From IMG/VR virus record IMGVR_UViG_2895767234_000001, positions 7,555 through 71,554 of that record: DNA of 64,000 bases; one strand, written 5' to 3'. The notes under the pieces are model-generated. The model searched no databases. It saw nothing but the letters and a program-made list of their open reading frames with translations, and had not been told where the DNA came from. Shown here piece after piece: positions 56,816 to 57,861 of the stretch. Position 1 is the stretch's first letter; each line of letters starts with the position of its first letter. The DNA comes from a virus. Lineage: Duplodnaviria; Caudoviricetes. Made by a program: the position numbers and the translations under genes.

Positions 56816-56895
56816 TGGCGCCGGGAGCGGGAATCGAACCCGCACGTGACAGGCCCGGTGGGGGCCTGCCGTTCTGCCTGTCGAACTCTCCCGGC
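56816..56895 (-). ncRNA. tRNA-like RNA 1 (encoded CCA, elongated anticodon arm)
   Basis: Acceptor GCCGGGA/TCCCGGC-G-CCA; D arm GTTC/GAAC; T arm GCGGG-TTCGATT-CCCGC; 7-8 bp anticodon stem with no U33. Confidence 0.8.
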
Positions 56896-57189
56896 CTCAT
56901 TCCGGGCGGCACCGAAAAGCCTTCTGCCGCCCGGGGGCGTGACCTAACGCATGGGGTGTCCTCCGTGCCTGGATTGCGGACTGGCCGCTGTGGCGCGGGC
57001 CGGCCGGAGGGTGCCCCGGCAACCGGCCCGTCGTGGAAGGCCGCGCCGCAGTCGGGGGTGGTCAGTCGAATGCCCCTGACCGGGCGGGGATGGGTGGCCC
57101 CTTCACGAAGGGCCTGGAGTGCGCCTCACAGTCACGGGGCAGGGCGTGAAGTTCCCGATCCGTCCAGTGCGGGGGTCAGGCCCACGGGC

Positions 57190-57251
57190 CGCCGTCCGCA
57201 CCTGCTACGCGCTTCCCCGCCGTCCGCACCTGCTACGCGCTTCCCCGCCGT
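57190..57251. repeat. 28-bp tandem duplication (2 copies plus a partial third)
   Basis: CGCCGTCCGCACCTGCTACGCGCTTCCC x2. Confidence 0.9.
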
Positions 57252-57378
57252 CGCGGGTGGCCCCCACGGTCACGCCGCTGGGGGCAGGGTCAGCCGGACA
57301 CAGAGAGTCTCAAATCCACGTCTGGAGTGTCCTGGGCGTTCCAGTCAGGGCCTCCCCTGCTGGCGTCGGTGGTAAAGA

Positions 57379-57459
57379 TGACCTCGGGTGGACTCGAACC
57401 ACCGCACCACGCGGCCTGCCGGGGGACAGCGCGTTCCTGCACCACCAGGGGGCGAGGTC
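57379..57459 (-). ncRNA. tRNA-like RNA 2 (bulged long anticodon arm, no encoded CCA)
   Basis: Acceptor GACCTCG/CGAGGTC-A; D arm CCTG/CAGG with GG loop; T arm GGTGG-TTCGAGT-CCACC. Confidence 0.72.
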
Positions 57460-57509
57460 AGGAAAACGCCCCGTGAAGGGCGCTGCCTTGCCAGGGCTTG
57501 TGGCTCAGG

Positions 57510-57797
57510 TCAGAACGCGAACTTGTTCTGCGGGCGCAGGTATTCCATCAGGTGCGGGCGCTGGTCGAGCTGGATCACGGTGGCCCGCGAACTGACTGAG
57601 GGCGGTTCGGGCATGCGCCCCAGCCGCAGATCCGAGCGGATTTCAGGCGGGACGGTGAGCTTGAAGGGCACCAGGTCGGAGGCCCAGGCCCAGGCGGAGG
57701 TGACCATGCCAGCGCACCACCCGCCCACGGCGGAGGCCGCCAACGCCGCGCCAGACGAGAACAAAACGCTGAGGGTCAACCAACGACTCTTTCTCAA
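57510..57797 (-). CDS. Membrane/secreted protein (about 95 aa)
   Basis: TTG start after AAGGAG; basic N-terminus then a hydrophobic stretch. Confidence 0.45.
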   Translation of the reverse strand: MRKSRWLTLSVLFSSGAALAASAVGGWCAGMVTSAWAWASDLVPFKLTVPPEIRSDLRLGRMPEPPSVSSRATVIQLDQRPHLMEYLRPQNKFAF

Positions 57798-57815
57798 ATG
57801 AACCACACTCCTTGT

Positions 57816-57861
57816 CGGCCCGCACCAGAATCGAACTGGTGATTGCACCTTTTGCCGGGCC
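57816..57861 (-). ncRNA. tRNA-like mini-RNA 3 lacking an anticodon arm
   Basis: GGCCCG/CGGGCC acceptor; GCA-AAAGG-TGC mini D-hairpin; CACCAG-TTCGATT-CTGGTG T arm. Confidence 0.55.

Follow-up and report, generated by a model that had tools for sequence, protein, structure and literature searches.

Why would a temperate phage maintain tRNA-like folds that cannot decode? The question is raised by a 64,000-nucleotide stretch of viral DNA (positions 7,555 to 71,554 of IMG/VR record IMGVR_UViG_2895767234_000001), referred to here as the window. Within 1 kb, the window carries three tRNA-like elements that we call E1, E2, and E3. All are on the minus strand, which is also the strand of an early operon that begins at a cro-like helix-turn-helix gene, with a divergent cI-like gene adjoining. 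Our comparison of the elements with their relatives points to one reading, to which we give an even chance of being right. Namely, E1, E2, and E3 would be tRNA-derived punctuation marks for ribonuclease P (RNase P) in a Deinococcus temperate phage or phage-plasmid, placed along its long early transcript on the cro side. The positions and layouts of all features are listed in Table 1.

Three tRNA-like elements that cannot decode

A first-pass annotation of the window had placed three minus-strand elements here, with aberrant decoding arms: a C-rich loop lacking U33, and an encoded CCA, in E1; a bulged 10-bp arm ending in CCCC in E2; and no such arm in E3. The folds confirm this description. The placement is also confirmed by ARAGORN and Rfam, in the case of E1, and by a scan of both strands of the complete 71.5-kb record for a T-loop with a perfect 12-bp stack. 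The scan returned only E1, E2, and E3, while shuffled sequences give 0.17-0.2 matches. In each element the T-loop is UUCGAKU and the acceptor and T arm form an unbroken 12-bp stack. For E1 and E2 this is the canonical tRNA arrangement of a 7-bp acceptor on a 5-bp T stem, with a GTTCRANYC T-loop. The stack of E3 is divided 6+6, giving the same total of 12. All three elements are in stretches without periodicity in GC content at third codon positions, indicating non-coding DNA.

Below the stack, the likeness to tRNA breaks down. The canonical decoding features (a 5-bp anticodon stem, a 7-nt loop, and U33) are absent from E1, E2, and E3. Nor is the usual set of core tertiary nucleotides, U8 and A14 with G18 and G19 of the D loop, complete in any of them. 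Positions 8 and 14 are G and G in E1, and C and G in E2; both elements keep GG in the D loop, and E3 is without a D arm. All three have C:G at position 3:70, so the G3:U70 pair recognized in tmRNA alanine charging is missing, and no element is called as a tmRNA by ARAGORN or the Rfam tmRNA models. The minimum free energy (MFE) fold of E1 is a cloverleaf. The ARAGORN and Rfam searches proposed in the first-pass annotation gave a divided answer. E1 was called by both, as an 80-nt tRNA-Gly(ccc) and with 42 bits against the Rfam tRNA model RF00005 (cut-off 29). The best Rfam match of E2 was to tRNA-Sec, at 20.6 bits, and E3 had no Rfam tRNA match. We conclude that none of the three elements can decode. 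E1 is almost certainly not a decoding tRNA; automated annotation could list it as one.

The origin of E1 can be traced. Its acceptor stem, T arm, and the bases past its CCA match Deinococcus tRNA-Leu(UAA), with identity at 31 of 35 positions in the 3' part (88% over ~35 nt). Since the acceptor stem is the same, the T arm nearly identical, and the CCA plus flank the same, the sequences indicate that E1 is a descendant of the host tRNA-Leu(UAA). Deinococcus tRNA genes encode CCA, and descent thus also explains the CCA of E1. The remainder has been remodelled. The D, anticodon, and long variable arms of the tRNA have given way to one 8-9 bp stem and a D arm unlike the original, and U8 and A14 have been lost. 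Note that discriminator A73 is the main leucine identity element in bacteria; it is replaced by G or U in E1 and its relatives.

The elements are kept while their surroundings diverge

Two related phages were found through ORFan proteins encoded in the flanking DNA. One is an ENA contig (L002) and the other is represented by identical Logan contigs (L004-L008). In both, E1 is nearly base-for-base identical to that of the window, and the CCA is retained. The differences are in the loop, 5 nt in the window and replaced by two different 8-nt loops, and in the discriminator, which changes from G to U. For E2 of L004, the acceptor and T arms are unchanged, and two D-stem pairs have changed on both sides. 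The long arm of this E2 is 8 bp and has indels relative to the window; its CCCC loop is the same. E3 of L004 has two compensated T-stem pairs. Over the same comparison, the 480-nt spacer between E2 and E1 can barely be aligned between the window and its nearest relatives, save for a few short motif blocks, and the integrase of the window is only 63% identical to that of a close relative. Judged from these alignments, the elements are under constraint, unlike their surroundings, since they have been kept while the spacer and integrase diverged. Note that phages are mosaic, and high identity of a block could also mean recent exchange.

More distant relatives were sought by BLAST of the region against 111 Deinococcus genomes, followed by searches with a covariance model built on R1, a conserved block that precedes E3 (see below). 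Their elements were located by scanning for perfect stacks, and base pairs were tabulated by structure, as MAFFT alignments misplace the 5' strands. In total, 23 elements were collected at 14 loci. These represent 12 genomes, of which 10 are Deinococcus genomes, one is this provirus, and one is the L004-type metagenomic relative. Each of the 12 stacked positions is occupied by between 2 and 5 types of pair, and just 6 of the 276 pairs are non-standard. The junction between acceptor and T helices moves (7+5 or 6+6) with the total constant at 12. Conversely, the segment that leads from acceptor to T arm can be as short as 10 nt or as elaborate as a full D arm with an extra arm. A canonical anticodon arm (5-bp stem, 7-nt loop, U33) was found in 0 of the 23 elements. 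The discriminator can be G, U, A, or C, and varies even among close relatives. The first-pass annotation had asked for covariation across relatives, and had argued that retention of the elbow with loss of the anticodon reflects selection rather than decay. Stack pairs are indeed compensated or varied, and the anticodon region is not kept. The argument for selection is well supported: the stack persists through changed sequences, the anticodon region is variable or absent, and the spacer cannot be aligned.

Hairpins, U(-1), and gene starts mark the element boundaries

Several properties are independent of the search used to find the elements: an upstream hairpin, the identity of the bases before +1, recurrence of position, including that ahead of start codons, and the presence of an encoded CCA. 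Of the 23 elements, 22 are preceded by a stable GC hairpin, with its end 0-8 nt before +1. The 40 nt upstream of the elements have a mean MFE of -16.8 kcal/mol; for positions drawn at random from these loci, the mean is -10.5 kcal/mol (Mann-Whitney p = 4e-11). Most of these hairpins have no U tract. Equivalents of the hairpin before E3 precede every class A element, and the hairpin before E2 has a stem conserved in L004 and a different loop. Directly 5' of E1, the window (56897-57022, minus strand) has ~125 bases more than L002 and L004, bounded by GCCGG microhomology. This insert brings the strong hairpin that precedes E1; E1 of L004 is the only element without a hairpin nearby.

The base at -1 is U in 15 of 23 elements, against a background of 16% (p = 1.5e-7), and in 10 of 16 once close copies are removed. 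At -2, A is present in 14 of 23. Nine elements end 11-22 nt before a start codon with a Shine-Dalgarno (SD) sequence, and most of the genes concerned are mutually unrelated. E3 is 4 nt upstream of the gene B ribosome-binding site, AAGGAG. An encoded NCCA is found only where an element closely precedes a gene; in class C, 4 of 8 have it, and the rest have near-matches. Altogether, the elements are non-decoding folds with an intact acceptor/T stack, on the operon strand, at the boundaries of open reading frames (ORFs) or non-coding RNAs.

A non-coding motif recurs upstream of the elements

Upstream of E3 is a ~445-nt ORF-free stretch (57862-58300) that contains R1. The stretch is ~95% identical to its counterpart in L004, and is more conserved than the flanking genes. 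Its 100-nt core has invariant C5/G5 and GGCGG/CCGCC helices and a CAAGAGCAGCAA box. The covariance model of R1 identified 13 sites in 10 of the 111 Deinococcus genomes; beyond these 10 genomes, none was found in a 151-genome sample of the class, and R1 has no match in Rfam. The 506 nt upstream of E3 fold no better than shuffled sequences (z = -0.6), hence the case for R1 rests on conservation rather than energy. No conserved ORF with synonymous-type changes was found in this stretch.

At the R1 loci, a shared integrase (55-63% identical) is encoded 1-3 kb downstream, and in some a cI-like gene is upstream. Because the integrase is common to the loci, and the cI-like gene to some, we assign them to one temperate-phage lineage. 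The recurring order, present in about 11 Deinococcus genomes besides that of the window, is R1, hairpin, tRNA-like element, variable genes, further tRNA-like elements, and integrase. At 9-10 of 12 R1 loci, the strand of R1 carries a tRNA-like element 47-135 nt past the motif. It is a minihelix of 41-52 nt in most, and a 73-nt cloverleaf with an aberrant loop (46 bits with the Rfam tRNA model) in two. Further downstream, many loci have another minihelix, with the SD sequence between it and the start codon of a gene. The complete window-like series is found in genome G062, where homologues of E3, gene B (weak), E2, and E1 are all present. Here, the E3 homologue scores 30.1 bits on the Rfam mascRNA-menRNA model. 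The E2 homologue scores 48.7 bits on the Rfam tRNA model, has an 8-nt loop, and is called "tRNA-???" by ARAGORN. The E1 homologue has wholly lost its extra arm. E2 counterparts in G062, G040, and G069 are cloverleaves with 8-nt loops.

A second conserved feature, R2, consists of the motif blocks that survive in the otherwise divergent spacer between E2 and E1. Some of its pairs have changed on both sides, and the window copy includes a perfect 28-nt tandem duplication (57189-57244).

Arrangements of R1 vary in genome G043. Two tandem copies are present on one contig (G043:C13:50988-51245; L047/L048) and a third is on contig C15. At the latter, an XRE/ImmA-like gene pair is part of a low-GC block that directly adjoins the R1-minihelix unit.

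Other searches returned little. BLAST of the region against phage and plasmid collections gave no match. Viral contigs scanned for the E1 pattern, or for close relatives with gene A and a 130-amino-acid upstream gene, yielded none; one distant homologue of the latter gene is on a 1.7-kb contig that ends too soon. In D. aquatilis and D. oregonensis the integrase is 66-67% identical, with nothing else in common, and no elements are within 5 kb.

Table 1. Features of the element region, with window coordinates.
Feature	Position	Strand	Description
E1	56816-56895	-	80 nt; 7-bp acceptor, D arm, 8-9 bp stem with 5-nt CCACC loop replacing the anticodon arm, T arm, discriminator G, encoded CCA
E2	57380-57459	-	7-bp acceptor, 5-bp T stem, 4-bp D stem, 10-bp arm with 2-nt bulge and CCCC tetraloop; no CCA
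E3	57817-57861	-	45-nt acceptor/T minihelix, 6+6 bp, 14-nt linker; no D or anticodon arm
Hairpin before E1	56902-56934	-	ends 6 nt before +1; upstream 40-nt fold -23.2 kcal/mol
Hairpin before E2	57467-57482	-	terminator-like GC hairpin, then UUUUCCU; directly 5' of E2, just past gene B stop codon
Hairpin before E3	57867-57887	-	8-bp GC hairpin; ends 5 nt (CCCAU) before +1
R1 (core)	58011-58113	-	conserved non-coding motif upstream of E3
R2	57085-57244	-	conserved motif blocks in E2-E1 spacer; common to L004, G040, and G062
Gene A	56339-56752	-	first ORF past E1; start codon 68 nt beyond tRNA-like body
Gene B	57510-57797	-	small predicted membrane protein; E3 on 5' side, hairpin and E2 on 3' side
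Tyrosine recombinase (integrase)	54948-55979	+	inside early operon, in opposite orientation; 0.84 kb from elements

RNase P as the proposed reader of the elements

A 12-bp stack capped by the T-loop is what RNase P, RNase Z, and the CCA-adding enzyme measure. Similarly, U at -1 is an established preference of bacterial RNase P. Because the parts preserved are those read by the machinery that processes tRNA ends, together with U(-1), we propose that RNase P cuts at the elements. Briefly, a single transcript would cover the region; no promoter-like sites were found in it, and the gap from hairpin to element is too short for a promoter. Host RNase P would cleave this early transcript between -1 and +1 of each element. 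The upstream product, either an R1-containing non-coding RNA or the gene B message, would then end in a stable hairpin and be shielded from 3' exonucleases. The downstream product would start with a base-paired 5' end or, if a 3' cut is also made, possibly by RNase Z or an exonuclease, just before a ribosome-binding site. In this way, the phage could obtain separately stable RNAs from one transcript, and alter expression, without stopping transcription. RNase P or RNase Z processing was one of three functions offered in the first-pass annotation, and is the best fit among them, given the upstream hairpins, U(-1), and the position of elements before ribosome-binding sites of unrelated genes.

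Several observations weigh against this proposal. First, perfect stacks were the search criterion, and the pair counts are therefore partly circular. Second, some folds are imperfect: the MFE fold of E2 in the window is not a cloverleaf (that of L004 is), E3 of L004 has one C-A mismatch, and its MFE fold is not the minihelix. Third, CCA, which is preferred by bacterial RNase P RNA, occurs only in E1 and some elements close to ribosome-binding sites, and four elements begin with C rather than G. Fourth, the best Deinococcus matches to the RNase Z model score 100-115 bits, compared with a cut-off of 293 bits, which does not establish a bona fide RNase Z. Since these matches fall so far below the cut-off, the 3' cut is uncertain. 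Finally, a cleavage signal would not require the D arms and lengthy extra arms found in E1 and E2, which hints at a further role.

If RNase P punctuation is correct, temperate phages of a high-GC host that contains RNase J would be using captured, stripped-down tRNA genes as portable "cut here" marks. Combined with a protective hairpin, the marks would divide a single early transcript into messages and non-coding RNAs, each stable in its own right, and transcription would not be terminated. This would be a natural bacterial counterpart of the tRNA-flanked processing arrays of synthetic biology, and of tRNA punctuation in organelles. It would also explain phage "tRNAs" that are unable to decode; the tRNA-Gly(CCC) call for E1 illustrates a likely source of false tRNA annotation. 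In addition, the comparison brings out two conserved and unannotated RNA motifs, R1 and R2, in the immunity-proximal region of this Deinococcus phage lineage.

Comparison with known tRNA-like RNAs

The closest parallels are the t-elements of plant mitochondria. These are non-canonical tRNA-like folds, with a conserved T arm (GGTTCRANYCC), within longer transcripts and next to 5' or 3' mRNA ends (Forner et al. 2007, PMC1920247). They are taken to direct cuts by both RNase P and RNase Z; some emerge as small RNAs, to which non-encoded C or CA is added (PMC1920247). Likewise, E1, E2, and E3 are non-canonical folds with a conserved T arm, in longer sequence units near gene ends. In contrast, t-elements belong to organelles, are assisted by proteins, and have experimentally mapped RNA ends, whereas E1, E2, and E3 are in a bacterial virus. 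The phage elements are also paired with an upstream hairpin, some consist of no more than a 41-52 nt minihelix, and their sequences are unrelated to those of t-elements.

A second parallel is eukaryotic in nature. The MALAT1 and MEN-beta RNAs are long non-coding RNAs followed by a mascRNA fold; RNase P makes the 3' end of the upstream RNA, which is protected by an end structure. At our loci, too, a putative non-coding RNA (R1) is directly followed by a small tRNA-like fold. However, E1 and the G062 homologue of E3 score 16.7 and 30.1 bits on the mascRNA-menRNA model (Rfam RF01684), below the 42.5-bit family threshold. Hence, the match is convergence of shape and not membership. Further differences are a simple hairpin in place of the triple helix, a bacterial host, and a downstream RNA that is a translated message. 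A bolder version of the comparison, which we consider quite doubtful, is that R1, the hairpin, and the tRNA-like element form a hitherto undescribed bacterial-virus counterpart of MALAT1-mascRNA. The 3' end of the R1 RNA (and perhaps that of R2) would be made by RNase P rather than termination, and the released look-alikes, including E1 with its CCA, would act as functional mimics that engage a host tRNA-binding factor in the lytic switch.

Phages supply precedents for RNase P cutting of RNAs that are not tRNAs. RNase P cuts the C4 RNA of P1 and P7, the M3 RNA of phi80, and operon mRNAs (cited in PMC11143913). C4 and M3 are phage-encoded, map to early or immunity regions, and are substrates of the host enzyme, as we propose for E1, E2, and E3. 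The difference is that C4 acts by pairing of its loops with a target; by inspection, no conserved target pairing was found for the elements. Furthermore, C4 is not known to have the full T-loop and 12-bp stack present in E1, E2, and E3.

Finally, the first-pass annotation had suggested that the elements might be tethers resembling Y RNAs. YrlA RNAs are encoded within 4 kb of rsr, on the same strand. Their 5' and 3' ends form a Ro-binding helix with the motif GNCGAAN0-1G, and their equivalent of the acceptor is a closed stem-loop (Chen et al. 2014, PMC4201824). There are similarities. Like the elements, YrlA and Deinococcus Yrn1 are non-coding RNAs with tRNA-like D and T arms, some YrlA RNAs are cut by RNase P and given CCA, and Deinococcus has Rsr. 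Unlike YrlA, the elements have an open acceptor and no terminal Ro helix. The Rfam Y RNA and YrlA models gave no match to the elements at E<=10. No rsr (Ro60, TROVE) gene is beside the elements, where the neighbours are ORFans and the integrase, and the provirus record has neither a TROVE match nor a gene for a CCA-adding enzyme. Identity with Y RNA or YrlA is thus not supported by topology, context, or models.

Alternative explanations

Could the elements instead be products? They might be set free as small, stable tRNA mimics with a function in trans, occupying or titrating a host factor that binds tRNA. Candidates are EF-Tu, a tRNA sensor, an enzyme for CCA addition or modification, and a tRNA-targeting toxin or defence nuclease. 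Processing would then merely be their route of production. The elbow, formed by the D-loop GG and the T-loop, is the handle for many tRNA-binding factors. In E1 and E2, the D arm with its GG has been retained, as has a long, stable extra arm, and a mere cleavage signal requires neither. Moreover, the CCA of E1 is kept in three close relatives, and the CCCC tetraloop of E2 is the same in the window and L004 despite indels in its stem. Against this, one syntenic slot can hold anything from a 41-nt minihelix to a 73-nt cloverleaf, so that no shape is conserved below the elbow. The loops are CCACC, 8 nt, CCCC, or missing across the lineage and, as they are not conserved, mimicry of a particular anticodon loop is excluded. 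For the same reason, the decoys for anticodon nucleases suggested in the first-pass annotation are unlikely; the loop that such enzymes read is the least conserved part. The variable discriminator argues against aminoacylation. There is also no linked gene for a partner protein, the genes adjacent to the elements being variable ORFans. Overall, we regard action in trans as unlikely, if worth keeping in mind.

A rather less probable option is that the elements are not cut at all. They would be cis-acting structures of 5' untranslated or intergenic regions, setting translation or mRNA stability, or terminator or antiterminator units together with their hairpins. Such roles suit the nine elements found immediately before an SD sequence, the location in an early operon downstream of a cro-like gene, and the hairpin before E2, which resembles an intrinsic terminator with a U run. 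Yet the U tract is missing from most of the preceding hairpins. A generic hairpin also needs no T-loop sequence, no 12-bp stack of two helices, and no U(-1).

The elements might also be sites or relics at the DNA level, such as attP or other attachment (att) cores, tRNA gene fragments left by integration, or tyrosine recombinase sites. E1 does share its acceptor, T arm, and 3' flank with the host tRNA-Leu(UAA), a tyrosine integrase is encoded at a distance of 0.84 kb, and nearly all related loci have a homologue of it linked to the region. In addition, mobile elements produce tRNA gene fragments, which commonly give rise to false tRNA calls (PMC9897764). Even so, we consider this explanation very improbable. 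Both acceptor strands are present and co-vary, when an att identity block covers the 3' part only. The elements are internal to an operon rather than at a prophage end, and no tRNA gene is in the contig flanks read. E2 and E3 have no match at E<=0.01 to the DNA of two integrase-related genomes (G001 and G002), and the search of 111 genomes gave only weak 30-nt matches touching E2 and none touching E3. All elements are on the transcribed strand, and the hairpin and U(-1) are strand-specific. Note also that the contig encodes ParA and ParB, and the phage element may not integrate at all.

Equally improbable are antisense regulators of the P1 C4 or P4 CI type, that is, RNase P-processed RNAs with loops that pair with targets in the same operon, such as an antirepressor or downstream genes. 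C4 is a known RNase P substrate, the early operon is close to the immunity region and would share its strand with the targets, and L004 has an AntA/ANT antirepressor gene 3.3 kb downstream. The C-rich loops of E1 and E2 could pair with G-rich or SD-like sequences. However, loop sequences differ from one member of the lineage to another, and in several elements the loop arm is missing. Inspection of the window, L004, and G062 revealed no loop and target that change together; the matches seen were short G/C runs of 5-7 nt, which are expected, and hence uninformative, in DNA of 67% GC.

Lastly, decaying phage tRNA genes without present function are scarcely credible: E1 passes the Rfam tRNA threshold, and near-canonical cloverleaves (46-49 bits) occupy the same slots in some relatives, but acceptor and T stems are intact in all 23 elements, when decay would strike stems as often as the anticodon arm; flanking non-coding DNA is unalignable between closest relatives that keep the elements; and neither the hairpin nor U(-1) is a feature of decay.

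An integron-like arrangement, with a recombinase and cassettes flanked by folded sites, was also considered. It was rejected, as the T-loop does not fit an attC core and the cassettes point towards the recombinase.

Genomic setting of the elements

The window is part of a 71.5-kb IMG/VR provirus record, itself on the 112-kb contig QYUJ01000008.1 of NCBI assembly GCA_003590815.1. Of the proteins encoded around the elements, the recombinase is the sole one conserved, by blastn and tblastn, in most related loci (55-67% identity; L049-L056, L033, and L034). The genes between R1 and the recombinase are swapped from locus to locus. Gene B has a homologue in L004 (72% amino acid identity) and a weak one in G062 (50% over 18 amino acids, at the C-terminus).

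The phage genes are flanked by ParB and ParA partition genes, an MmeI-like enzyme, and transposases (L059 18104-19743, ~6 kb left of the provirus record). The flanks of the 112-kb contig, in the parts read, contain no tRNA gene on either side. The contig may represent a phage-plasmid, or else a prophage carried by a plasmid. A gene for an OLD-like TOPRIM/AAA nuclease of 664 amino acids (L058 3274-5268) is located towards the left end of the record (G000), in the part that precedes the window. A HicA toxin gene and a DDE transposase are close to it (L059 7912-8097). The OLD-like nuclease and HicA genes are probably accessory defence or toxin-antitoxin cargo.

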